A stretch of DNA of 64,000 nucleotides from a virus. Of this stretch, positions 5,332 through 28,539 are shown piece after piece. The DNA is taken from positions 96,001 through 160,000 of the IMG/VR virus record IMGVR_UViG_3300032304_002285. One strand, written 5' to 3'. The notes under the pieces are model-generated. The model saw only the letters and a program-made list of their open reading frames with translations, was not told where the DNA came from and made no database searches. Within the stretch, counting starts at the first letter, position 1. Each line of letters opens with the position of its first letter. The position numbers were made by a program, and so were the translations under genes.

Positions 5332-9528
<4,197 letters not shown>

Positions 9529-9530
9529 GT

Positions 9531-11747
9531 ATGGCTCAAATAATCACAGGAAGTCGTTGGTCTAGTCCAAGACCTTTGACATATCGGTTATTAAACGGGA
9601 ATGATATTCTTTTAGATCCTTATACAAGCGTTGCTGAGGCTGATCTTGGTGTTATTGAAAGTCCAGTAGAAGGGCAGATGGCTATAGATTCATTAGGGAT
9701 AAGTTGGCAGTATTTGTCTGGGAGGTGGGGTGCATTTATTTTTGACCCATATACAAAATTACTATTGCACGGATTTAGTTATAATGGTTCAACAACTATT
9801 ATAGATAGTTCGCCATATCCTAAATCTTTATCCATTGTTGGAAATACTAATATATCAACAACTACATCAAAATTTGCTGATAAAAGTAGTATATATTTTG
9901 ATGGAAGTGGAGATTATTTAAATGCTGAAAACTTTGCTAGCTGGAATTTTTCAACTAATAATTTTTGTTTAGAATTTTGGCTTAGAAGTTCAGCTTCTAT
10001 TACAAACTCAAAATATATTTGTTATTTAGAAAATACTGCTGGTACAGAATATATTAGCATTTCACTAAATAATCGTTATGATGTTGGTGGGCCAGATTAT
10101 GGAATTATTGTGGGTGTAAATGCGTCATGGATGGGTTATGGAGCAAATGGCAGTTTGACAGATACTAATTGGCATCATTTTGCATTAGTAAGAAATGGAA
10201 ATACTATACTAATGTATATTGATGGAAATTTAGGTAATAGTTTAGCATTTTCAAATCCTATAAATCTCCTTGGCACAAAGAAATATTTTGGTGGTTATGG
10301 ACCAGACTTACCGCAATATAGTATTGATGGATATATGTCTGATATTAAATTATCTGTTGGTACTGCACGATATACTGATGAGTTTACACTTCCTATTATT
10401 CCACATTCAGATTTATCAACGGGTAATGACGGATATACATCATTATTAATTCATGGTACAGGAAGTGATGGAAGTATATTAATCCAAGATTATAGCCCAC
10501 AAACAAAGAGCGTATCCATTGTTGGGAATACGAATATTTCAACGGCTCAAAGTAAATTAGGGAATGGTTCAATTTGTTTTGATGGGAGTGGTGATTCTAT
10601 AACAGTTGCAGATAATGTAGATTTTAGTTTGGGTAGTTTAGATTTTACTATTGATTGTTGGGTTTATTTGACAACATTGGATCAAAATCAAGTTTTTTGG
10701 TCTTCTGTTTATACTGATGGTGCGTTTTCTTTCAGTTTTAATCATGCAACTTCGGGGAAACAGGGTTTGAATATTGGTTGCTGGTCTACCGGATGGGTGT
10801 TGGTATTTTATATTTATCAAGGAAATAAAACTGGTTGGACTGTTAATAGTTGGAATCATGTAGCAGTAGTTAGAAGTGGGAATATAATTACATTATATCT
10901 TAATGGGGTTGCGGTTGCGAATGGGTCATGTTCTTCCGCTATTCCTGCTTATAATCAACATTCAATAGGCAGTGTGATTTCAGAACAATATTTAAACGGT
11001 TATATGCAAGAATTTAGATTTTCTAAAGGAATAGCCAGATGGGTAGATAATTTTACTCCTAACAGCCTGCCATACAAAGGTGGAGAATGGGACGGGGTTG
11101 ATGAATACACAAAGTTATTATTACGTTTTGATGGAGTTAATGGTCAAAATACAACAGTAGATAGTAGTCAGTATAATCACACAATTTCTATGTATAATGG
11201 GGCTAATTTAACAACAACCGTAAAATATTTTGGTACTACTGCATTGTTGTTAGATGGTTCAGATGATTATTTATCCACGCCTCAAAGTAGTGATTTTAAT
11301 TTTGCTGGTGATTTTACGATAGAGTTCTTTGTAAGCTTTAATAATCCTGCAAGTCTTGGATATTTAATAGGTAATGGTAATTTGCAACTTGGAACAGATG
11401 GGTGGTCAATTGGAAGGAATTCTGGTGGTTTTATTTGGATATCTTATACGGGGGTTTCTATAAGTTGTAATGCCGATGGTTGGACAGCAGGAATATGGCA
11501 TCATGTTGCTCTTGTTAGAAGTGGAAGTTCAATAAAAGTATATAGAGATGGAGTTCAAGATACTAGTCAATACGCAACAGCAACAGATTCGTCTAATTGG
11601 GTTTCTTCTAATCCACTACAGATAGGAAAGGCTCCTGCTGGCAATAGTTATATGTTTTCGGGGTATTTGGATGAGGTTAGAATATTGAATGGATATGCTA
11701 AGTATACCCAAAACTTCTCGGTTCCTTACAAGCAAGTTGGAGTATAA
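9531..11747 (+). CDS. LamG/concanavalin-A-like domain protein with three tandem lectin-fold repeats (probable fibre/receptor-binding)
   Basis: Three repeats of FDGSxDYL...FTIxxW...WHHxAxVRxG...GYxxExRxxxG.ARYxxxF. Start moved to ATG 9531, just after the collagen gene stop. Confidence 0.85.
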   Translation: MAQIITGSRWSSPRPLTYRLLNGNDILLDPYTSVAEADLGVIESPVEGQMAIDSLGISWQYLSGRWGAFIFDPYTKLLLHGFSYNGSTTIIDSSPYPKSLSIVGNTNISTTTSKFADKSSIYFDGSGDYLNAENFASWNFSTNNFCLEFWLRSSASITNSKYICYLENTAGTEYISISLNNRYDVGGPDYGIIVGVNASWMGYGANGSLTDTNWHHFALVRNGNTILMYIDGNLGNSLAFSNPINLLGTKKYFGGYGPDLPQYSIDGYMSDIKLSVGTARYTDEFTLPIIPHSDLSTGNDGYTSLLIHGTGSDGSILIQDYSPQTKSVSIVGNTNISTAQSKLGNGSICFDGSGDSITVADNVDFSLGSLDFTIDCWVYLTTLDQNQVFWSSVYTDGAFSFSFNHATSGKQGLNIGCWSTGWVLVFYIYQGNKTGWTVNSWNHVAVVRSGNIITLYLNGVAVANGSCSSAIPAYNQHSIGSVISEQYLNGYMQEFRFSKGIARWVDNFTPNSLPYKGGEWDGVDEYTKLLLRFDGVNGQNTTVDSSQYNHTISMYNGANLTTTVKYFGTTALLLDGSDDYLSTPQSSDFNFAGDFTIEFFVSFNNPASLGYLIGNGNLQLGTDGWSIGRNSGGFIWISYTGVSISCNADGWTAGIWHHVALVRSGSSIKVYRDGVQDTSQYATATDSSNWVSSNPLQIGKAPAGNSYMFSGYLDEVRILNGYAKYTQNFSVPYKQVGV

Positions 11748-16117: not shown

Positions 16118-19100
16118 ATGTCTAGAATGTGGGTTCGCAATGATGGCTTTTTAATTATTGAATGTGATTATGAGCAACGGAATTTGGTAAAAGAGATAGG
16201 TGGGAGATGGGATGTAGTAGAAAGGGCTTGGGTTGTTGCATTTAGTATTTCCAATGTGGAATATTTAGTTGACGAGATTGATTCTTTAACGGTTGATCAG
16301 TCTGTTGAAGATAAGCTGCATCAACAGATAGAAAAAGAAGACAAGCTAAATAAAATCCGGGAAATGTCCAAACAGGATGTTCCGGTTCGTCTTCTTGTCC
16401 CTGGTCTTAAGGAGAATTGTAGACTCTATAATTACCAAAAACTGGGTGTTGTCTATTCTTTAACAAATGCAGAAGGGGTATTAATTGCCGACGAAATGGG
16501 TTTGGGAAAATTTTGTGCTATAAACACCCCCGTATTAACAGCTTATGGCTGGCAACCAATTGGTTCTTTGAAGGTCGGGGACATGGTTTATTCGAGGGCT
16601 GGAACCCTTAGCCGGGTAAATGGAGTTTATCCTCAGGGTGTGAAAGAATTACTGAAAGTAACTTTTAGTGATGGGTTTTCATGTGAGTGTGGGTGGGAGC
16701 ATCTTTGGATAGCCCAGACGGACAACAATGCGAAGAGGAAGCAGGGGTGGAGAGTTCTCGACACTCGACAATTATTTGGTGACTTACACTACAAGGATAA
16801 AAGGGCCAAGTGGCGGATACCCTTGGTCGAACCAATCGCCTATAACACTAAGACGTATATCATACCACCATATCTAATGGGAGTGTTGCTTGGGGATGGT
16901 TCCTTGACAGATGGAGTAACCTTTGTTCCTGGGGATGATGAAACTCCATTTCTTGTACAGAAGGCTGTACCTCCGGGTTATAGCTTGCATAAGAATGCTG
17001 ATTATGGAACGTCAACTCGGTATTCTATTGTTTATAAAGGCAGTGGATACGAGAACCCACTAAAAACTCAAATTGTTAAATATGGACTAAATGTTACTGG
17101 GGAAAGGAAGTTTATTCCTCATGAATATCTTGAAGGAAGCATAGAACAACGGAAGCAGTTGTTGGCTGGCTTATTGGATACAGATGGTTCTGCAATGAAA
17201 GCTAGGACTAGGTTTTCAACAGTATCGGAACGTCTTGCTGATGACGTTATCGAGCTTGTTCATAGTCTGGGTGGAATGGCTACTAAGTCTCTTGTTCCTG
17301 GCAGATTAAGGGTAAGGGATGGGAAGCAGGTTCAGGAGCAGGATTGTTGGCAATTGGTTGTTAGAACTAGTTTTAATCCATTTTCCCGTCCATCTTCTAT
17401 TGCGAAGTGGAAGAGATCATCAAAACTTGTCAGGAATATTGTAAGTATTGAGCCTGTACGGTATGATGATGCGGTATGTATTGCTGTTGATTCCAAAGAT
17501 CATTCGTATGTTATTCAGCATCATATTGTAACACACAATACCCTGCAAGGTCTTGCTATTTCGTTGGTTAGGAAGAATAAGAACGGGGCAAAAAAGTGTC
17601 TTATTGTCACTCCTGCTTCTTTAAAGTACAATTGGCCAATTGAAATCGAAAAATTTACAGATGAGAAGTTTGTGGTAATTGATGGGAGTCCAGAAGAGAG
17701 GATTGCTCAATGGATGCGGGATGACGTTTATTATTACGTTGTTAATTTTGAGCTTATTCTTGAGGATTTGTTTGGAGGTAGGGAATATAAAGAAGATCCA
17801 GATGATGATGAAGAGAAGACTGCCAGAAAAAAAGAATTAAAAGCTAAGGCTCAATTTAGGAAGAAAATTTTAAGTTCTGTAAAAGAACGAGATTGGGATA
17901 TGATCCTTGTGGATGAATCCCATGCCCTTAAATCTCATGCTAGCAAGAGAAGTAAGTGTATAAAGCAATTGAAGAGTAAATTCCGAGTGGCTTTAACAGG
18001 TACTCCGATGGATGGGAGATTAGAAGAGTTACATTCAGTTATGGAATTTGTTTATCCTGGGTTGTTGGAATCAAGAACCAGATTTCTTCAGAAGCATGCC
18101 ATTACTGATTTCTGGGGAAAGGTGACTGGGTATAAAGATATTGATGATGTAAAGAAGCGGATAGCTCATTGTTTTATTCGCAGATTAAAGGCTGATGTTT
18201 TAAAGGACTTGCCTAATAAAATCTATCAGAATAGGATTGTGGTTCTATCAAAGGAAGAAGAAAAAATCTACAAGGCGTTAGCTTCTTCGGGTCATGTAGC
18301 AACCCAAGATACTGAAGCCATGGTTACTGTGATCAGATGTAAGCAGTTTTGTGATTATCCTGGATTAATTGGTGAGAATTGCAAGGTGAATTCTAAGCTT
18401 GAGGCTTTTAAGGAGATTTTGGATGAGGTAATTATTCAAAATGGGCATAAGGTTCTGGTTTTTAGTCAGTATAAGCAGATGATAGATGTTTTGGTGAAAG
18501 TAATGGAAGAGATGAATCTGAAATATCTTCGGATTGACGGAGATACACCAAAGCAGCTTCGAGCGGGGATGCAAAAGCAATTCAACGAGGATAAATCAAT
18601 AGATTCGATGATTGGCACAGAGGCTATGTCTACTGGTTTGAATTTCACCTCTGCTGATTATGTAATTAATTATGATGACAATTGGGCTCCTGCTATTATG
18701 GCTCAGAGGGAGGATCGGTGTGTTATAGAGGGTCAGTATGTCAATACGGATCGCGGGATGGTTAAGATTGAGGATGTTAAGACTGGGGATATGGTTTTAA
18801 CTCATCGGGGTAGATATCGGAAGGTATTAGACGTATGGAATAAACTTCATAGATCTAATACAACTGGTGGATTAACAACGGAAATCAAATACAGAAGATA
18901 TGGCTATCCATTAAAAGTAACCCATGATCATTTAGTTTTGATCCTTAGGGGTGAAAAAATAGATTGGATGGAGGCAGTTGATGTCCGTCCTCGTGATTTT
19001 TTATTATCTCCTATTTTGTCTGAAGAAAGAAATGACCCTGGTGAATTGGAATTTCCAGAGGAGTTTTCTTTTAATAAGATGCAGAGATTAAATGGTTCTG

Positions 19101-20005
19101 CTGAATTTGTTAATGGTAGATATCATCCATTGCCAAGAGCCATCAAGATAGATGACGACTTCCTTTTTGTTGTTGGTTGGTATTTGGCGGAAGGGTTTTG
19201 TTCTATTTCAAATGACAAAGGCAAGTTTGTTTCTTTTTCTGGGCATGTTAAGGAGATGAGTATTCTGGAAAGGATAAAAAAGTATTCTAAGGAAATACTT
19301 GGAATAAATGGAACAATAAATAAGCCAGCAACTAACGGGATAGAATTAAGAGTATATAGCTCTGAGTTGGCTTTTTGGTTTGAAAGTTTATTTGGGGGCG
19401 AATGTTTTAAAAAACAAATACCCCACGATTGGCTTGTAAAGTGGGATATAAAATATTTAGAAAAAATATATGGAGCATATGTCCAGGGGGATGGGTATTT
19501 TAGAAGGAACACTAAAGAATGGGTTACTGTTTCTCCAATTCTTTCTTTACAAATGACGAAAATAACCGAAATGATGGGTTATCCTTCAACGTTGAGGCAG
19601 GTTGATAATTGCCATAATAAGGGCCATTGGATTGGCGCTTTAACGGCAAATGGAGATTACAGAAGTTCGCCTCTTTTAAATAAGAAAGTGGATGGTTATG
19701 TATGTCTTCCTGTTTCTGAGGTTATGACAAGAATAGAGACCAGTAAGAAAGTTCGGGTTTATGATTTAACTGTTGAGGAAGATTCTTCCTTTGTTGTTGG
19801 AAGGGCGGCTGTTCACAATTGTCATCGCCTTGGCCAGAAAAATGTAGTTAATGTAATTAATTTTGTTTGTAAAAATACGATCGAGGAAAGGATTCGTGGT
19901 GTTTTATATGGAAAGTCTGTTGTTTCAGCGGAGACACTTGGGGATGATGTAGACGATATGGTTTTACATCGGTTGGGACCTAAAGATATTGCTAAATTGC
20001 TTTAA
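16118..20005 (+). CDS. SNF2/SWI2-family helicase with two inteins (1295-aa precursor, about 585 aa spliced)
   Basis: Exteins contain ADEMGLGK|T (motif I), ILVDESH (II), ALTGTP (III), KVLVFSQY (IV), GLNFT.AD.VI.YD..W.PA (V) and QREDR|CHRLGQ (VI). Confidence 0.92.
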   Translation: MSRMWVRNDGFLIIECDYEQRNLVKEIGGRWDVVERAWVVAFSISNVEYLVDEIDSLTVDQSVEDKLHQQIEKEDKLNKIREMSKQDVPVRLLVPGLKENCRLYNYQKLGVVYSLTNAEGVLIADEMGLGKFCAINTPVLTAYGWQPIGSLKVGDMVYSRAGTLSRVNGVYPQGVKELLKVTFSDGFSCECGWEHLWIAQTDNNAKRKQGWRVLDTRQLFGDLHYKDKRAKWRIPLVEPIAYNTKTYIIPPYLMGVLLGDGSLTDGVTFVPGDDETPFLVQKAVPPGYSLHKNADYGTSTRYSIVYKGSGYENPLKTQIVKYGLNVTGERKFIPHEYLEGSIEQRKQLLAGLLDTDGSAMKARTRFSTVSERLADDVIELVHSLGGMATKSLVPGRLRVRDGKQVQEQDCWQLVVRTSFNPFSRPSSIAKWKRSSKLVRNIVSIEPVRYDDAVCIAVDSKDHSYVIQHHIVTHNTLQGLAISLVRKNKNGAKKCLIVTPASLKYNWPIEIEKFTDEKFVVIDGSPEERIAQWMRDDVYYYVVNFELILEDLFGGREYKEDPDDDEEKTARKKELKAKAQFRKKILSSVKERDWDMILVDESHALKSHASKRSKCIKQLKSKFRVALTGTPMDGRLEELHSVMEFVYPGLLESRTRFLQKHAITDFWGKVTGYKDIDDVKKRIAHCFIRRLKADVLKDLPNKIYQNRIVVLSKEEEKIYKALASSGHVATQDTEAMVTVIRCKQFCDYPGLIGENCKVNSKLEAFKEILDEVIIQNGHKVLVFSQYKQMIDVLVKVMEEMNLKYLRIDGDTPKQLRAGMQKQFNEDKSIDSMIGTEAMSTGLNFTSADYVINYDDNWAPAIMAQREDRCVIEGQYVNTDRGMVKIEDVKTGDMVLTHRGRYRKVLDVWNKLHRSNTTGGLTTEIKYRRYGYPLKVTHDHLVLILRGEKIDWMEAVDVRPRDFLLSPILSEERNDPGELEFPEEFSFNKMQRLNGSAEFVNGRYHPLPRAIKIDDDFLFVVGWYLAEGFCSISNDKGKFVSFSGHVKEMSILERIKKYSKEILGINGTINKPATNGIELRVYSSELAFWFESLFGGECFKKQIPHDWLVKWDIKYLEKIYGAYVQGDGYFRRNTKEWVTVSPILSLQMTKITEMMGYPSTLRQVDNCHNKGHWIGALTANGDYRSSPLLNKKVDGYVCLPVSEVMTRIETSKKVRVYDLTVEEDSSFVVGRAAVHNCHRLGQKNVVNVINFVCKNTIEERIRGVLYGKSVVSAETLGDDVDDMVLHRLGPKDIAKLL
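16511..17539 (+). mobile_element. Intein 1 (343 aa, class 3 type) with LAGLIDADG homing endonuclease, inserted in Walker A (GK|T)
   Basis: Starts FCAINTPVLTAYGW, block B ..EHLW, block F VCIAVD, ends VTHN before Thr. LAGLIDADG-like motifs YLMGVLLGDGS and LLAGLLDTDGS. Confidence 0.88.
18719..19819 (+). mobile_element. Intein 2 (367 aa, class 1) with LAGLIDADG homing endonuclease, inserted in helicase motif VI (DR|C)
   Basis: Starts CVIEGQYV, block B VTHDH, block F VYDLTV, ends VHN before Cys. Motifs VGWYLAEG and YGAYVQGDG. Confidence 0.9.
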
Positions 20006-20017
20006 TGGGAGAGGTTT

Positions 20018-21841
20018 ATGTCTGGTTTTAATGACACTATGGAGCTAGAGCGTTCGCTTTTGCATCTTCTTGTTACTCAGAAGATGACTCTTCAGAAAAT
20101 CCACAATAAAATCAAAGAAGATTATTTTACATCTAAAGAAAGAAAGTTTATCCGGGATAATATTGTCCGTACCTTTAAGACTTCTAAGGGGTTGTTGACT
20201 CAAAACATTTTTGATTATGAGGTAAGAAGCCGGATTGATGTTAAGGATGCTCATTTTTATGAAATGGAATGGAGCCTTATTAATGGCTTGCAAGGTAAGG
20301 ATGAGCCTGAGGTTTTGTTAGAAAGATTAGGGAAGGCTCATGTTGGAAGGCAATTATTAGACGTTGCTGAATCTGTGGCTGAGTTTATTGAAAAAGGAAA
20401 GATTGATGAAGCTCAGCGTTTCATCAAAACTTCTCTTTCTAAGATATCGGATCAAAAGCAAACTCCTGATATTGTAGAGCTTACGGATTATAAGCATCGG
20501 CTTGAGGTTATTCAGGATAAGAAGGATCATCCAGAAAAATATCTTGGGATAAAGACAGGCTTTGCTACTTTTGATAATGCTACTGGTGGTTTATTCCCTG
20601 GTGAATTGACTTTGTTTTCTGCTATTACTGGTGTGGGTAAGTCTACTATTCTTAAGCAGATAGAGACGGGAATTATTAAGTGCAATAAGAATAAGAATGT
20701 ACTTCATATTTGTAATGAGGAGCATCTATTACAGGTTGAGACAAAATTTGATGCTCAAATGAGTGGAATCCCATATAGGGATTTTAAGTTGGCTACGATT
20801 ACTGATGAAAATTTGGAAAAATGGAAAACAATAATGGAGGTAGATTTAAGGCAACCCGGAATTGGGAGAATTTTTGTAAAAGAAGTTCCAGCTTTTACTG
20901 ATATCACTTTGATTGAGGAGGCGATTAGGGAATTAGAGGCAAAGGGAATTAAGATTGATGTTGTGATCATTGACCATTTGCCCCACGTAAAACCGGTTGA
21001 GCAGGCTTGGGGGGAATTTGATGAACAAGGGAAAGCTGCTACTGATTGTAAGGAGTTGGGTAGGGCTTTCCATTTGGCTGTGGTTACTGCAACTCAGGCT
21101 TCAACAGAAGTAGAAAAGAAACAGACTAAGGGAAAGGCTGCTGGGAAGATGGATGTATATGGATCTAAGGAGCAGGTTCATGTAGCAAATACCTCTATTG
21201 CTGTGACTGTAACCGGGAAAGACGATTCAGATCTCAGCATTCCAGAATGGGAAAGAGATGTTTATTGGAGTGTTGATATCAAAAAGAATCGTGATGGTGC
21301 TTGTTTCGCATTTAAGGCTGTTCATCATGTAAAATATGGATTTGTTGAGGAAAGGAAGGAGGAGCCTAAGCAGAATAAGGCGGTAGATAATTCATTAAAT
21401 AATGCTGTTGGCGAAGTAGGGAAAGGAACAGAGAAAGGGAAACAGAGCAAGAAGCAAGAAGAGAAGACAACGGAAGAAAAGCCAAAGGAAGAGAGTACAA
21501 AGGAAGTGGATCAAGAGGAAAAACCGAAAGAGGATTCACAGCAGGAAGAAAAACAAGTAGAGGATGATCCAAAGCCTCAAGAGGAAGTTAAAAAAGAGGA
21601 AGAGGTGGAGGTTGGTGTTGATGCGGGAGTTCCAATTTCTTTTCTTGATAAACAAAAGGCTTTGGAAAAAACAGGAATGAAACCAATAGCTAATAGTGAA
21701 ATAGAGACTTCGGATGAGGCTATGGAAGAAGTGAAAAAATTAGTTATTACTAATCAGCCGGTTGCCATTTCTCAGCCGAAGGTGGAAAAAACTTTGGTAA
21801 GTACAATTAAGAAGCCAAAAATTTTAGGTTTTAATTCTTAG
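20018..21841 (+). CDS. dnaB: DnaB-family replicative helicase with a long acidic low-complexity C-terminal tail
   Basis: GIKTGF..FD..TGG..PGEL, Walker A ITGVGKS, VVIIDHL, TATQ, IKKNRDG. Confidence 0.85.
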   Translation: MSGFNDTMELERSLLHLLVTQKMTLQKIHNKIKEDYFTSKERKFIRDNIVRTFKTSKGLLTQNIFDYEVRSRIDVKDAHFYEMEWSLINGLQGKDEPEVLLERLGKAHVGRQLLDVAESVAEFIEKGKIDEAQRFIKTSLSKISDQKQTPDIVELTDYKHRLEVIQDKKDHPEKYLGIKTGFATFDNATGGLFPGELTLFSAITGVGKSTILKQIETGIIKCNKNKNVLHICNEEHLLQVETKFDAQMSGIPYRDFKLATITDENLEKWKTIMEVDLRQPGIGRIFVKEVPAFTDITLIEEAIRELEAKGIKIDVVIIDHLPHVKPVEQAWGEFDEQGKAATDCKELGRAFHLAVVTATQASTEVEKKQTKGKAAGKMDVYGSKEQVHVANTSIAVTVTGKDDSDLSIPEWERDVYWSVDIKKNRDGACFAFKAVHHVKYGFVEERKEEPKQNKAVDNSLNNAVGEVGKGTEKGKQSKKQEEKTTEEKPKEESTKEVDQEEKPKEDSQQEEKQVEDDPKPQEEVKKEEEVEVGVDAGVPISFLDKQKALEKTGMKPIANSEIETSDEAMEEVKKLVITNQPVAISQPKVEKTLVSTIKKPKILGFNS

Positions 21842-21920
21842 GATCAGGGTGAGGATTGGGTTCTCAACGGTATAATGGTTTGTCGTTCAATTTGGGAACA
21901 AAAGACAGAAGGGCAATCAG

Positions 21921-22928
21921 ATGAAGAAGGATCAGGAAGAAATGGTTAATCAAGCTGAAGAGCATGCCTTGCTGATGTCTCAGGGAATTGGGAGTTCTTT
22001 TGCTGGGATTTATTATGTTGAATCGGCTTATGTTAAGCTGACAGCCCAGAATAAGAAATATACCGATTTGATTCTGCGGGATAAGTCTGGTGGGAGAAAC
22101 GTAAAGTACTGGGGAACGGTTCAGGATGTGAATGCTGGGACCTTTGTTTTAGTTTCTGCAATGGTTGAGGATTATCAAGGTAGCCCTTCTATCATTGCCA
22201 AGAATCTGGAAAAGGTTGATGATCCAGATGATTTGTCAGATTTCATTGCTGTTTTTGAGAATATTAAAGAGGTTGAAGATCGGTTTGTTCAACTTGTGGA
22301 TCAGGTTGTAAAGATGGAGTCTCAAGAAGGGCAAGAAACCTGTACTCTTCTTCTTGGTGAGGTTTTTGATGCTAATGAGGCTTTGTATCAAAAGTTTGTG
22401 GAATCTCCGGGGAGTGAGAATCCCTATTATGGAAGGATGGGAGGATTGCTTGTCTCTACTGTAAACGTTGCTGAGAATGTTATGGCATTGGCTGGACGTT
22501 ATGAGATGTCTAATATGGAAAAGGCTATTGCTCTAACTTCTGCTCTGTTGCATAAGATTGGTGCAGTTGATGGTTTTGAGTTCAAGAATTGTTTGCCTAA
22601 AACAACCAAGAAGGGTTTGTTGTTGGGCTTGAACAATTTGACATTCAATCGGATGTCCATTGCTATTAGGAAGGCTGTTGCAGAGGCGAAGGCTCAGGGG
22701 AAGGCTGTATCTCAGGAATTGATTCTGCTTATTCTGCATGCGGTTTCTTCTTATGATGAGACTTCTGTAAAGCCGATGTCTAAGGAGGCATTGCTTCTTT
22801 CTGCTGCTGTTAAGTGTGATAAGGAAATGGTTGAATCTTTCGATTTCATTTCCAATGATCTTAATACTTCGGAAGAGTTTACGGCTTATGACGTTCGTAA
22901 GGGACGTAAATATCTTCGGGGTGCATAA
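21921..22928 (+). CDS. YhaM/Cbf1-like OB-fold + HD-domain protein, catalytic residues degenerate
   Basis: N-terminal OB fold (YTDLILRDKSG....KYW). HD region GGLLVST and ALLHKIG in place of the usual HH..GGL..H and LLHDIGK. Confidence 0.7.
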   Translation: MKKDQEEMVNQAEEHALLMSQGIGSSFAGIYYVESAYVKLTAQNKKYTDLILRDKSGGRNVKYWGTVQDVNAGTFVLVSAMVEDYQGSPSIIAKNLEKVDDPDDLSDFIAVFENIKEVEDRFVQLVDQVVKMESQEGQETCTLLLGEVFDANEALYQKFVESPGSENPYYGRMGGLLVSTVNVAENVMALAGRYEMSNMEKAIALTSALLHKIGAVDGFEFKNCLPKTTKKGLLLGLNNLTFNRMSIAIRKAVAEAKAQGKAVSQELILLILHAVSSYDETSVKPMSKEALLLSAAVKCDKEMVESFDFISNDLNTSEEFTAYDVRKGRKYLRGA

Positions 22929-22931
22929 CCA

Positions 22932-24026
22932 GTGGAACTTGGAATTAAAGAACAGCTTCGGTATCGAGATATTTCCTGGTTAATGTCAGGGGTAGATATC
23001 GAAGCTGTTATGGGAAAGCTAGGGACTAAGATTCATGGATGGTCAGGGGATCGTGTCATAGGATTTTGCCCTGACCATCATCTTTTCATTAATAGGAGAC
23101 CGTCCCACCCTAGATGGATGTTAAGCATTAAGACTGGAGAGACTTTTTGTTTAACGGAAGGCAGGGGAAGCAATCTTCTTTGGACAATTTGCCGTCTCTT
23201 TGATTGTTCTCCTAAAGATGCGATTAGCATTATAACGGGGGAAGAGTCTGGGTCTTTGACTGAACAGAGGATTCAGTTGAATTCCATTCGGGGTAGATTG
23301 CGGAGGATGCGTGAGGTTGAAGAAGTGGTTGCTCCTAAGATCGTTCAGGGGTTGGACGATATTGGTAAGGATTTGGTAGAAAAGCCAATTTCCCAGAGGT
23401 GCTACGATTTTTTCATTAAGCCTCCCAATAAGCCTCATCCAACTAACATAAAAAAAGAGACGGTTGATCGGTATAGTATCTTTGAAAGAACGTGGGGGTA
23501 CTATTCGGATAGGGCTATTATTCCTTTTTACATGAGGAAGGAGCTTAAGGGTTTTGCTGCTATAGATCTTCTTGGGGAAGACGAGTGGAAGAAGAAGCAT
23601 CCTTTGTCCGATAATTACAGGAAGACTCTTACAGCTATAAACTTTCAGGTGGCAGAATATCTATTTGGCTTTGATGATTGTCAGAAGGGTGCAGACTGGC
23701 TAATCGTCACAGAAGGTCCCAGAGAAGTCATGAAGCTTTGGCAGGAGGGGTTTCCTAATGCTGTTGCTACTTTGGGGATAAACATTGCCCCAGGCCAGCA
23801 TAGGCTTTTTGCCGAGTTGATGCCCAAAAACATTGTTCTGATGTATGATGGGGATGCACGAGGTCTGGCTGCAATGGATAAGATCGGAGAGAGTTTTGTA
23901 AGAATTTTTGGAAAAAAACACGTTCATAAGTGCCTCTGCCCCAATGGTTATGATCCTAAGAACTTATCAGCCAATGAGTTAATTTCCCTATTTAATGGGT
24001 TGAAAGATAAGGGTTTTGGAGTATAA
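22932..24026 (+). CDS. dnaG: DnaG-type DNA primase (Zn-binding N-terminus + TOPRIM)
   Basis: FCPDH...HP N-terminus; LIVTEG, NAVATLG, VLMYDGD TOPRIM motifs. Confidence 0.85.
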   Translation: MELGIKEQLRYRDISWLMSGVDIEAVMGKLGTKIHGWSGDRVIGFCPDHHLFINRRPSHPRWMLSIKTGETFCLTEGRGSNLLWTICRLFDCSPKDAISIITGEESGSLTEQRIQLNSIRGRLRRMREVEEVVAPKIVQGLDDIGKDLVEKPISQRCYDFFIKPPNKPHPTNIKKETVDRYSIFERTWGYYSDRAIIPFYMRKELKGFAAIDLLGEDEWKKKHPLSDNYRKTLTAINFQVAEYLFGFDDCQKGADWLIVTEGPREVMKLWQEGFPNAVATLGINIAPGQHRLFAELMPKNIVLMYDGDARGLAAMDKIGESFVRIFGKKHVHKCLCPNGYDPKNLSANELISLFNGLKDKGFGV

Positions 24027-24096
24027 TTGAGTGGTTGGCTTTATTAGGCTTTGAATAGGCTGCCGAATTATCGGCTTGTAGAAAAAAGGCGTGGGT

Positions 24097-24858
24097 ATGT
24101 CAGACAATATTGCTCGTTTCCCTGTTTCTCTCCTTGATTTGGTTAGTTATTTTAATGGGACCAATCGGTGTAAAGACCCGAATTGTCGTTGCCATTTAGC
24201 TATGGCTAATCACTCTCACCTTGTCGAATCTTCCCCCATTGTCCGGGTCCCTGTCACTCAGAAGCATGCTGTTGCCATTCTTTCTGGCAAGTTTGTTTGT
24301 GAGGACAAAAACTGCAAGTGTCACAAAAGTAGTGCTTATATTGGCGATGCTTTCTATGAATCAATAAATAAATTGGTTTGGAAGTTGGCTAATAAATATG
24401 CAATCACTTGCAAATTAGATGACGTGAAGGACTTGGGAGGTATTTGTTTTAATCGAATCGTCAAGATGCTTCACAAGTATGATCCAAAGTACGAGTTCTC
24501 TACTTGGGTTTGGACGGTTTGTGAAAACATCCTTCGCCATCAGTGCGAGAAGACTAAGAGGTATATTGACGTTTTTCAGCCGGTTGACGATGATACTAAT
24601 TTAATTGGCAAGAAAGAAGGTGATTCTTTTCTTTTTGCTGAAATGGTATCAGCCATTGATGACTTGAAAGAAGAGTTCCCGGCTTGGGAGGGCTTCTTGA
24701 CTGCTTTATTTGGTAATACAAAGGAGGCTGGGTATTGCATGCCCGATGCTGTTTGTATTGCCAAGTCTGCTCGTGTTGCTGGAAGATCTTACAATGAGGT
24801 TCACCTCTTTATGAAAGAGGTTGTGAGACCTTTTTTTTCTGAGAGATTCGGGTTGTGA
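24097..24858 (+). CDS. Phage-encoded sigma70-family factor (region 2 plus a possible region-4 HTH)
   Basis: LVWKLANKY...DDVKDL....F...VKML.KYDPKY.FSTWVW matches region 2 (D.....F.TY pattern). Confidence 0.7.
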   Translation: MSDNIARFPVSLLDLVSYFNGTNRCKDPNCRCHLAMANHSHLVESSPIVRVPVTQKHAVAILSGKFVCEDKNCKCHKSSAYIGDAFYESINKLVWKLANKYAITCKLDDVKDLGGICFNRIVKMLHKYDPKYEFSTWVWTVCENILRHQCEKTKRYIDVFQPVDDDTNLIGKKEGDSFLFAEMVSAIDDLKEEFPAWEGFLTALFGNTKEAGYCMPDAVCIAKSARVAGRSYNEVHLFMKEVVRPFFSERFGL

Positions 24859-25649: not shown

Positions 25650-26549
25650 ATGTATACGATTGACTTTCCTTATTATCAGCCTCCTTTTCCGGAATATAAT
25701 CCGGTCCAAAGTGCTGTAATTCCGTTCATTGATAAAGATATGAACGTGGTTGCAGCATTTGGAACAGCAACAGGGAAGACAGTCTTAGCCGAATGTGCTT
25801 TTGCTTATCACTTAAGTCAAAATGATTCGGCTAGGGTTGTCTTTGTCTGTCCTTTCCGTAGCCTTAGTGAGGAAAAGTTTAAGGCTTGGAAAGCGAACGA
25901 TCAATTGTCTAAGTACTCTGTGGTTATTAGCACTAGTGACCATGGAACTACTCCTGAGGAATTCATACAGGGGAGATTGTCGATTGTAACCTCAGAGTCT
26001 TTTGATTCAAAGGTTCGGGGAAGTCGGTACCGGGATTGGGTCAATTCAATTACTTGTGTTGTAGTTGATGAGGCTCATATCATGGGGGAAAGAAATGGTT
26101 CGATAGAGACATCATTGATGAGAATAACCAAGATAAATCCTCAAGCGAGGATTATTCTTCTTTCTGCTACGCTGGGTAATGCTATAGATTTGGCGAAGTG
26201 GTTGAAGAAGCTGAATGGTAAAACAACGAAATGTTTTACTAGTAGTTGGAGACCAACAGCTATTACTACTGAAATTCATGTGGTAGAGGATGGATATCAG
26301 GATAAGATAGATAAGGCTGTTGAGCTTGCTTCTAATAATGAAGGGAAGATCATTATTTTTGTTCATTCAAAGGTTCTTGGTGCTGATATATGCAAGAGGT
26401 TGAAATCTTCCGGTTTTAGATCTGCTTTCCATAATGCTTCTTTGTCATTTGCTTTAAGAAACAAAATAGAAAAAGCTTTTTCTGATCCAAGATCTGGATT
26501 GGATATTTTGGTCTCAACAAGCACTTTGGGTGCGGGTGTAAATTTATAA
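25650..26549 (+). CDS. Ski2/Hel308-like SF2 helicase, N-terminal part (motifs I-V)
   Basis: GTATGKT, VVVDEAH, LLSATL, IIFVHSK, FHNASL; ends ILVSTSTLGAGVNL-stop. Confidence 0.88.
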   Translation: MYTIDFPYYQPPFPEYNPVQSAVIPFIDKDMNVVAAFGTATGKTVLAECAFAYHLSQNDSARVVFVCPFRSLSEEKFKAWKANDQLSKYSVVISTSDHGTTPEEFIQGRLSIVTSESFDSKVRGSRYRDWVNSITCVVVDEAHIMGERNGSIETSLMRITKINPQARIILLSATLGNAIDLAKWLKKLNGKTTKCFTSSWRPTAITTEIHVVEDGYQDKIDKAVELASNNEGKIIIFVHSKVLGADICKRLKSSGFRSAFHNASLSFALRNKIEKAFSDPRSGLDILVSTSTLGAGVNL

Positions 26550-26560
26550 TATGGTGTTTT

Positions 26561-27115
26561 ATGTCTTTGCAGGAAATTAAAGAAAATTGTTTGTCTTGTA
26601 AAGCTTGCCCTTTAGGTGGCAGGGGAGTTGTTTTTTCTAATATGAATGAACAAGCTTCTATCATGGTTATTGGTCAGAGTCCGGGAAAGGACGAGGTAAG
26701 GGAGGGAGAGCCTTTCGTTGGGGTTTCTGGTAAGAATTTTGATGAAGCAATAAAAGAACATGTTGGGCTAAACCGTTCATTCTTTTATTTTTCAAATGTA
26801 ATTCGGTGTTTGGTTCCGGAAAAGTATTTACTTACAGAGCAGAATTTTTCAGCTTGTCGAGTTCATCTTGATAGAGAGATAAAGGAAGTCAATCCAGTTT
26901 TGATTGTTACTTTGGGATCATCAGCTTTCGAGTCATTAACAGGGATGCATGGCTTGATGAAGCATCATGGGAAGTTTATTATTTCTTCCCGATATATGAT
27001 TCCGGTTCTTCCTTTGTTGCATCCTTCTCCTTTGGTGATGAACAATGTGGAGACTAGAGATCTTTTTATTAAAGACTTAAAGAAGATTCGGGAGTTTATT
27101 TCACAAAATGGCTGA
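26561..27115 (+). CDS. udg: Uracil-DNA glycosylase, family 4 (Fe-S type)
   Basis: C..C..CPL, IMVIGQSPG..E...G.PFVG.SG, SNVIRC, EI..V.P..IVTLG, LLHPS. Confidence 0.9.
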   Translation: MSLQEIKENCLSCKACPLGGRGVVFSNMNEQASIMVIGQSPGKDEVREGEPFVGVSGKNFDEAIKEHVGLNRSFFYFSNVIRCLVPEKYLLTEQNFSACRVHLDREIKEVNPVLIVTLGSSAFESLTGMHGLMKHHGKFIISSRYMIPVLPLLHPSPLVMNNVETRDLFIKDLKKIREFISQNG

Positions 27116-28094
27116 TAGAGTAATTATTGTTGGCGCAAGTCGGCGTGGTGAGAGAATTCCCATTGGAAGTTTACGCCAAATGTGCGGACGAGCGGGAAGA
27201 GGGCATGAGTTAGGGGAGTGCCATGCTGATTTAATTGTGGCTGAAAGCGATGCTGATTATGTAGAGAATGGATTAAATCTTGCAAGTGAGTTGAGCATAT
27301 CTTCTGTCTTGAGTAAAAAGAATCTTTTGGCTTTTCATATTCTTCCTGAGATTGCATCAGAAGAAGTTTTGGATGTAGTTAGTGCTGAGTTATGGCATGA
27401 AAGAAGTTTTCATTCTTATCTTGGATTTGAGGTTAAGTGGGAAAAGATTTTTGAGTTTTTGTCTGAGCATGGTTGTGTAATTTGGGATGGTAATTTCGTA
27501 AAGATTACTCCTCTGGGGAGTATTACTGCTTCTTATTATTTCCATTCTTCAGATGTTTGTGATTGGAAGAATAATTTCTCTTTCATTTTTGAGCTTGGCT
27601 TAGAGAATGATGATCTTGCCTTGGCTTGGGCTTTGGGTAATGTAAGGAACAATCGTCGTTCTGGTGATTGTAGCAAGTTGGGTGAGATAATAGAGGATTG
27701 TCGCAACCGTCTTCCTGTTCCCTTGGAGATAGATGATGGTTGTGTATTGACTGTTCTTTTATGGTGGCATGTTTTTGGTGGTCCTCCGGTTGGCAAGTTA
27801 AAGAATCAATCAATCGAGTTAAAGAGTGACTTTGGAAGAATTTACAAGGTTCTTTCTGCTATTGATTCTGATGTATCTAATTGGGGAATGCAGAGTTTTT
27901 TTGATGATCTTTTGCTTAGGTCTAAAAAAGCAATTTCTTCGGAGCTTGTCAAACTTATCAAAATCGGCGGTATAACAAAGGGACAGGCAATAGCCCTAAA
28001 GGATAGGGGTATTAGCAATCGTAAGGAATTATTGGAGTCTAAAGAGCATATGGACCTTACAGATGTTCTAGGAGAGGGATATGACTTTTCCTGA
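27108..28094 (+). CDS. Ski2/Hel308-like helicase, C-terminal part (motif VI, winged-helix/ratchet region, HhH)
   Basis: Begins MADRVIIVG; QMCGRAGRG (motif VI); ITPLG.I.A.YY; C-terminal LIKIGGI..GQA..L...GI. Confidence 0.85.
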   Translation: MADRVIIVGASRRGERIPIGSLRQMCGRAGRGHELGECHADLIVAESDADYVENGLNLASELSISSVLSKKNLLAFHILPEIASEEVLDVVSAELWHERSFHSYLGFEVKWEKIFEFLSEHGCVIWDGNFVKITPLGSITASYYFHSSDVCDWKNNFSFIFELGLENDDLALAWALGNVRNNRRSGDCSKLGEIIEDCRNRLPVPLEIDDGCVLTVLLWWHVFGGPPVGKLKNQSIELKSDFGRIYKVLSAIDSDVSNWGMQSFFDDLLLRSKKAISSELVKLIKIGGITKGQAIALKDRGISNRKELLESKEHMDLTDVLGEGYDFS

Positions 28095-28539
28095 AAGGGC
28101 TGTTTTGACTTGTGCATCCCGGCTTAAATCCGGAAAGGTTTACGAAAGTGATATTCGTAATATCTTGAAGTGCATAAAAGTTGATGTTTCCCCGATAGAG
28201 CCTTTTTTAAATCATGTAGATTCCCTTGTACGGATGGCTGCAATTAGGATTATAGGGGCAAAGGGGAATGTTAGTTTGTTGTTTAATGTGTTGAGAGACG
28301 AGCAAGATAAATCAATTGTATTTGAGGCTATGAGGCATCTAGGGAAGCGAGGGGGAAATCTTGAAGATCTAGTTGGGATTTTAGAATCAAATGATTCTAT
28401 GATGAAGCAAGAAGCTATCGCCATGTTTAGACGTTCGGGAAATGTTGATTGTTTGTTCCCGTTATTATTTGATCAGGATCAAAATATAGTTAGTCAAGTC
28501 AAGGAGTATTTTGATGAGCGAGAAAGAAAATGTGTTTAG
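28081..28539 (+). CDS. HEAT-repeat protein
   Basis: Repeated L...D..VR.AA...LG helical units. Confidence 0.65.
   Translation: MTFPERAVLTCASRLKSGKVYESDIRNILKCIKVDVSPIEPFLNHVDSLVRMAAIRIIGAKGNVSLLFNVLRDEQDKSIVFEAMRHLGKRGGNLEDLVGILESNDSMMKQEAIAMFRRSGNVDCLFPLLFDQDQNIVSQVKEYFDERERKCV

Follow-up and report, generated by a model that had tools for sequence, protein, structure and literature searches.

Several phage genes are known to be broken into adjacent cistrons. The nrdA gene of Aeromonas phage Aeh1 is split by a free-standing homing endonuclease gene, mobE (PMC3045599), an SbcD-like gene is fractured without an intein and with a Vsr-like endonuclease gene (PMC2677866), and other 'fractured genes' carry split inteins that flank an endonuclease gene (Dassa et al., 2009; PMC2677866). 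Here we analysed a stretch of 64,000 nucleotides (nt), positions 96,001 to 160,000 of the IMG/VR virus record IMGVR_UViG_3300032304_002285 (hereafter the window), in which a Hel308-like helicase gene is broken into two cistrons, the N-half and the C-half, with a gene for a predicted uracil-DNA glycosylase (UDG) between them. The record measures 180,758 bp at an estimated completeness of 51%, and the phage is therefore large. The analysis indicates that this is very probably an ancient gene in pieces, common to a whole clade, in which a two-chain Hel308-like helicase is encoded on either side of a gap that acts as a cargo slot and UDG is a passenger. No description of a split Hel308, or of such a UDG arrangement in phages, was found in the literature.

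The locus resembles the Aeh1 nrdA/mobE and SbcD-like fractures in that an essential phage gene of DNA metabolism is cut into adjacent cistrons at a conserved motif, with halves presumed to reassemble unspliced; Vsr-like Zn-finger endonuclease genes likewise lie in the gap of seven relatives of the window. It departs from the known fractured genes in that the host gene is Hel308-like and is cut inside the second RecA domain (RecA2), the fracture is fixed in a large, old and diverse clade that branches deeply rather than in a single phage, no interaction residues have been added at the break, and the gap is a multi-cargo site. The gap of the window, moreover, holds a UDG of housekeeping type and no endonuclease gene. 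The fractured genes with split inteins are also two-cistron phage replication genes, and one related locus (L144), with IntN and IntC at motif V, matches them. In contrast, the window and its clade are without intein fragments, and there is no ligation by protein splicing.

The closest described helicases are archaeal Hel308/Hjm and the helicase-like domain (HLD) of PolQ (PDB 2P6R, 2VA8, 2ZJ2, 5A9F), which are alike with the window's gene in motifs I–VI, in the RecA2 beta-hairpin between motifs V and VI, and in the winged-helix (WH), ratchet and helix-hairpin-helix (HhH) domains. Unlike these, the window's helicase is made of two polypeptides broken after motif V, is about 19–24% identical to Hel308, and is phage-borne, within a replication module. 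Its scores fall far below the NCBIfam equivalog cut-offs: against the Hel308 equivalog NF040935, which describes a single polypeptide, the halves score 95.5 and 27.5 bits for a cut-off of 1200. The split helicase is Hel308-like and not a Hel308 equivalog.

The split point and the two halves

The locus is made up of the following elements.

25632/25650-26549, + strand: helicase N-half, 299 amino acids (aa) from the ATG at 25650, with homologues of equal length; stop codon TAA
25650-26549, + strand: content of the N-half, RecA1 and most of RecA2, with motifs I (GKT), II (DEAH), III (SAT), IV and V and the C-terminal end GAGVNL
26547-26560, + strand: junction of N-half and UDG gene, TAA followed by an 11-nt spacer; no clear Shine-Dalgarno (SD) sequence ahead of the UDG ATG when the sequence is read directly
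26561-27115, + strand: predicted UDG of family-4 type, 184 aa, with Cys ligands, GQxPG motif A, Phe/Asn pocket residues and HPSP motif B
27108-27115, + strand: overlap of UDG gene and C-half, 8 nt, ATGGCTGA, with the UDG stop inside the first C-half codons; candidate signal for translational coupling
27108-28094, + strand: helicase C-half, 328 aa, comprising the final RecA2 strands together with a short beta-hairpin, the helix of motif VI (QMCGRAGR) and, after it, winged-helix, ratchet and HhH domains

An earlier reading of the window made from the sequence alone (the sequence-only reading) had described this layout, and an open reading frame (ORF) check confirmed it: the N-half ends in GAGVNL-TAA, the C-half starts MADRVIIVG and has a motif VI that reads QMCGRAGR, and an intact UDG gene lies in the gap with its stop overlapping the C-half start. 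The N-half matched the Pfam families DEAD and Helicase_C, the latter over positions 1-81 of 110. On a helicase profile of 645 positions (PHROG 6819) the N-half covers 21-302 and the C-half 330-485. The homologue in an uncultured 595-kb phage (LR756511.1) is fused and contiguous (675 aa), and its junction reads GLNLPARRVVI. Because the alignment of the N-half to this protein stops at residue 327 and that of the C-half begins at residue 329, Met stands for the conserved Pro of the consensus GxNL-P-ARRV and nothing is lost or duplicated, exactly as had been claimed. The cut falls within RecA2, between motifs V and VI. In the model of a fused relative (L057) the split point maps to residues 306-313, a coil that links motif V to the strand after it.

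The assignment to the Hel308/Ski2 type, also proposed earlier, was upheld by profiles and models. Profile matches of the N-half, which has more than 120 homologues of about 300 aa, were to structures of Brr2, Hel308 and Ski2. The AlphaFold2 model of the C-half (pLDDT 95.3) opens with a strand (residues 4-8), after which come a short hairpin, the helix of motif VI (19-26), a further strand and then the WH, ratchet and HhH domains, and its top Foldseek matches were Hel308 (9B15/2P6R), Hjm, PolQ-HLD and Brr2, with E from 1e-10 to 1e-8. The HhH segment aligns to that of Hel308, and the model of the fused L057 protein has the full Hel308 architecture (TM 0.67-0.69). In Hel308 structures, strands are separated by the hairpin that lies between motifs V and VI, and the arginine finger comes from motif VI. 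With this layout, the N chain alone is without hairpin and arginine finger and the C chain alone is without an ATP site; neither half holds a full motor.

The split is widespread. A search with the N-half gave 203 relatives, of which the best 120 are 50-72% identical to it and nearly all 299-307 aa long; the exceptions are one call of 320 aa and a small number of shorter fragments. When the C-half was searched exhaustively, without a profile, against 1.84 billion representatives of 50%-identity clusters, 431 matches were obtained; the best 150 include 65 stand-alone proteins of about 330 aa that share the C-half's start residue and mostly open with MAD or MSD, and 53 fused helicases. Single-sequence scans of viral contigs gave almost no matches, and a profile query was required there. 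In total, 139 loci were gathered from viral contigs, metagenome contigs and assemblies. The split point is identical in the 52 distinct complete split loci. In every split locus gathered, a GVN(L/I/M) motif closes the N-half, with 0-3 residues or a short junk tail after it, and M-(A/S)-D-x-V opens the C-half. In all complete loci the halves are neighbours and keep their order. The same arrangement recurs in dozens of independent metagenome assemblies, and is therefore neither chance nor the mis-assembly that had been named as a possible source of error. The split is a clade-wide trait of phages of about 300 kb, and is not private to the phage of the window.

Both halves are under strong purifying selection, as is the UDG. 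The ratio of non-synonymous to synonymous rates (dN/dS), computed on chosen pairs, was 0.03-0.06 for the N-half and 0.07-0.13 for the C-half in closer pairs, 0.27 in one distant pair, and 0.06-0.16 for the UDG; relaxed selection, which would have spoken against the sequence-only reading, was not seen. Selection on both halves makes a two-chain enzyme the best reading. In sequences that are 25-70% identical to the window's halves, neither half varies in its catalytic motifs: GKT, DEAH, SAT and TSTLGAGVN in the N-halves, which hold motifs I–V, and Q-M-x-G-R-A-G-R in the C-halves. The pair would form an obligate two-chain enzyme, the first strand of the C chain probably completing the RecA2 sheet.

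The gap and its cargo

The loci fall into 36 that are fused, 60 split with UDG (half of these with additional DNA), 17 'naked' splits, seven with other cargo but without UDG, and 17 in which the contig ends too early. The comparison with relatives that had been proposed thus found all three states: fused, split and split around other genes. One of the seven 'other cargo' loci, L005, in fact carries UDG and was placed there by a start-codon artefact. UDG lies in the gap of 60 of the 84 classifiable split loci. The naked spacers are mostly 15-18 nt long, the remainder reaching about 60 nt. They are made up of a stop codon, an SD-like motif and a start codon (ATG, GTG or TTG); two stops in a row occur in some.

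The other cargo is diverse. Genes with a Zn-finger and a Vsr/DUF559 endonuclease domain occur in seven loci (L004, L018, L071, L078, L081, L085 and L086), mostly directly 3' of the N-half, whose tail is a junk extension in L004 and L018. L102 has an endonuclease-like ORF of a different type, L122 a TnpB gene (OrfB_IS605/Cas12f-like) directly after the N-half (5969-7150), and L021 a gene with a SLOG domain. In L116 the N-half is followed at 5834-10714 by genes for a C5 DNA methylase, a thymidylate-synthase (TS)-like protein and two N4/N6 DNA methylases, and a search of 5 kb showed no C-half. L106 and L125 likewise have a TS-like gene after the N-half. A family of ORFs of about 90 aa, with no Pfam match, lies between UDG and C-half in 16 loci (for example L004:6362-6646, L008:7506-7784 and L128:5916-6164); it is the only gap gene in L128 and is absent from the window, where the gap consists of 11 nt and the UDG ORF.

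Pairwise comparison showed that the identity of the Vsr-like genes tracks that of their host helicases, and no recent transfer of these genes was evident from it. This suggests that the Vsr-like gene is an old resident of the gap that has been lost repeatedly, and it may have arrived together with UDG. An endonuclease-made origin, by insertion of a mobile gene, is plausible for the locus of the window.

The gap ORF of the window is predicted to be a UDG of family-4 type. It scores 92 bits on Pfam PF03167 (cut-off 24.3), and its profile matches are solved family-4 enzymes (4ZBX, 1.2e-39; 1UI0, 2.8e-33). It is like the family-4 enzymes of Sulfolobus tokodaii (4ZBX), Thermotoga (TM0511) and Thermus (UDGA, 1UI0) in its Fe-S cysteines, Phe/Asn pocket and HPS motif B (E 1e-33 to 1e-40). 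C10, C13, C16, C83, C99, H154, S156 and P157 are invariant in 27 gap UDGs, so that the five cysteines and the HPSP motif are kept along with the Phe and Asn pocket residues. The gap UDGs differ from the family in motif A, which is GQ(N/S)PG in 27 of 27 sequences and not GE(A/G)PG, in a TIGR00758 score of 106.7, below the trusted cut-off of 125.3, and in their site inside a split helicase. In L019, a 253-kb relative, the gap UDG (7157-8812) measures 551 aa, enlarged by an intein with a LAGLIDADG endonuclease domain.

The gap UDG is the only UDG in the 180-kb record and in the complete 304-kb genome of a split-clade phage (G005); a complete 572-kb fused-clade genome (G002) was searched for UDG and none was found. 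The 8-nt overlap between UDG stop and C-half start recurs in eight deep-branching loci, including the basal L125, which points to conserved translational coupling from UDG to C-half. These features of the UDG would fit co-expression with the helicase. Neither the UDG start nor the C-half start of the window has a well-placed SD sequence (26547-26560 and 27090-27110); naked-split relatives have a clear AAGGA or GAGG.

History of the split and competing explanations

Trees were built from N- and C-half match columns with inteins removed, using fused relatives from 570-595-kb phages; the full-length tree was computed under a mixture model and is described by 43 rows. All split genes form one clade against the fused genes of larger phages (SH-aLRT 99-100). 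The first fork of the full-length tree separates an all-naked clade of eight rows from a clade of 35 rows (SH-aLRT 96), and the latter holds every UDG-bearing row together with the scattered naked rows L006, L017/L095/L100 and L108, and L128. Loci split without UDG (L006/L082, L017/L095/L100, L108 and L128) are in some cases nested within UDG-bearing groups with an SH-aLRT of 100. This is the position of L006, and UDG has therefore been lost from the gap at least there; overall it was lost at least three or four times, the split helicase remaining intact each time. Such repeated loss argues against an obligate partnership with the helicase. The UDG groupings mirror the helicase tree, with pairwise distances correlated at r = 0.78. 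This pattern fits a single acquisition with vertical inheritance since then, which appears to be the history of UDG.

One fused gene falls inside the split clade. L057 (4001-5980) encodes a 659-aa helicase with the junction GVNL-SC-DRAIIV and split-clade synteny, and is nested among split genes with an SH-aLRT of 99; in the approximately unbiased (AU) test its placement outside the clade was not rejected (p = 0.093). It is possibly a secondary re-fusion.

A scenario in which the split came first and UDG later is about one step cheaper than one in which UDG made the split; the step difference alone does not fix the order. The reading that we prefer, a gene in pieces broken once and carrying UDG as a passenger, has several points against it. 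The all-naked sister clade fits 'split first', but a loss of UDG there would add only about one step. Branch support in the trees, which come from quick searches, is limited to SH-aLRT, and several basal rows have long branches. With dS close to saturation, the dN/dS values are rough. Finally, the window's own gap contains no endonuclease gene or remnant of one.

The sequence-only reading had seen UDG as what cut and defines the split, so that N-half, UDG and C-half would be an obligate, co-translated uracil-repair machine with UDG as a functional or physical partner. The presence of UDG in most classifiable split loci, its long inheritance with the helicase, the purifying selection on it, the 8-nt overlap kept in deep-branching lineages as far as basal L125, and the lack of a second UDG in the split-clade genomes searched (the window record and G005), with none in the complete fused-clade genome, are all in favour of such a machine. 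However, the same break is found without UDG, across spacers of 15-18 nt, in the eight-lineage sister clade and in the nested naked lineages, other cargo replaces or joins UDG elsewhere, and no UDG-helicase fusion was found among the longer C-half relatives, which proved to be gene fragments, intein hosts and fused helicases. We regard this explanation as unlikely. The proposal of an obligate two-chain helicase with UDG is thus supported for the two chains; UDG as the cause of the cut or as an obligate partner is not supported. A broader version, in which UDG acts as partner or assembly factor in a three-part machine coupling uracil excision to fork remodelling, and the gap is an endonuclease-serviced bay through which huge phages exchange genes of DNA-base metabolism (UDG, TS-like genes, methylases), is in our judgement quite unlikely.

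It is extremely improbable that the halves are rejoined into one chain, whether by a group I or II intron, trans-splicing of a split intein, ribosomal bypass or stop read-through. Such rejoining is what the shared frame might suggest, since in the window 561 nt separate the last N-half codon from the C-half start and both halves are in one frame, as the sequence-only reading had noted; inteins are, besides, common in the gene family, and in L144 a true split intein lies at motif V, three residues upstream of where the window's gene is split. The frame relation is nevertheless not a conserved feature, the gap length modulo 3 being 0 in 26, 1 in 15 and 2 in 11 of the 52 distinct split loci. No Hint or intein fragment was found by Pfam in either half, and Rfam gave no match, whether at gathering score across the window or at E <= 1 within 26300-27400, in agreement with the earlier statement that no intein or intron is present to rejoin the halves. 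The N-half stops at its last extein-like residue, the C-half begins with Met, the gap is a conserved, selected ORF in a frame other than that of the halves, and the naked spacers hold translation starts and sometimes two stops. Just as hard to credit is a loss of helicase function, with the halves as decaying remnants or as proteins with separate functions. A break inside a RecA domain would normally inactivate a superfamily 2 (SF2) motor, but for both halves dN/dS lies far below 1 and every catalytic motif is invariant, the halves keep their adjacency and order in every complete locus, and the clade is large and old.

Inteins are found within the helicase genes of several relatives. They measure 145-525 aa and sit at three catalytic motifs: motif I of the N-half (L111, L116, L120 and L122), motif II of the N-half (L139) and motif VI of the C-half (L120, L126 and L127). 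The Cys of the window's QMCGRAGR occupies the position at which the motif VI inteins have their +1 residue. L144 (3-938 and 1047-2201) is a related helicase with a fused-type junction, CNMPARNVII, whose fracture is due to a natural split intein: the upstream ORF closes with IntN, the downstream ORF opens with an IntC of about 35 aa, and the 108 nt between the ORFs contain no endonuclease gene.

Surroundings of the locus and proposed mode of action

Every gene around the split helicase lies on the + strand, among them the following.

20018-21841, + strand: DnaB-like helicase, part of the conserved upstream synteny block 20018-24858
between the DnaB-like helicase and the Toprim primase, + strand: gene of unknown function, conserved upstream synteny
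22932-24026, + strand: Toprim primase, conserved upstream synteny
24091-24858, + strand: sigma-70 region-2 protein, conserved upstream synteny
28081-28539, + strand: HEAT-repeat protein, overlapping the end of the C-half; downstream neighbour kept in relatives

The gene order of 20018-24858 is also found in L004-L007 and L057, and the synteny of the split clade is that of the window: DnaB, the unknown gene, primase, the sigma-like gene, a small gene, N-half, gap, C-half and the HEAT-repeat gene. Scans for promoters and terminators gave signals at or near background level. Directly upstream of DnaB, a 1295-aa SNF2-family helicase (16118-20005, + strand) contains two inteins, one with a LAGLIDADG/Hom_end domain within the SNF2 domain and one with Hint and Intein_splicing matches after Helicase_C.

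We propose that the Hel308-like SF2 helicase gene of these phages of about 300 kb was broken once, in a surface loop after motif V, to give two cistrons. The N chain would contribute RecA1 and most of RecA2 with motifs I–V, and the C chain the next RecA2 beta-strand and hairpin, the arginine finger of motif VI and the WH, ratchet and HhH domains. The chains would reassemble non-covalently, the C-half strand completing the RecA2 sheet, into one working helicase that serves the replication/recombination module of the phage, and the close packing of the cistrons would favour matched synthesis of the two. After the split, the gap would have become a harmless insertion site, with cargo that depends on the lineage: none, UDG, Vsr-like or other endonuclease genes, TnpB, DNA methylases, TS-like genes or small ORFs. 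A single gain of UDG probably took place near the base of the crown clade that bears it (35 of the 43 full-length-tree rows), possibly with a Vsr-like endonuclease gene, and UDG would have descended vertically since. In the lineage of the window it would be the sole cargo, expressed within the helicase operon through a stop that overlaps the C-half start, a passenger useful to the phage and not a required partner of the helicase.

For annotation, it follows that ORFs of about 300 aa labelled 'helicase' and of about 330 aa labelled 'hypothetical protein' are to be read as one enzyme. A natural split-helicase pair is of interest for protein engineering and for the assembly of helicase domains, as an SF2 motor apparently tolerates a cut inside RecA2, between motif V and the arginine finger, that selection has preserved over a very long period in a large clade of environmental huge phages. 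The locus extends 'genes in pieces' from curiosities of single phages to a trait fixed at the level of a clade, and indicates that a fractured essential gene can serve as a stable landing pad on which genes of repair and modification, endonuclease and transposon genes, and inteins gather and are replaced.

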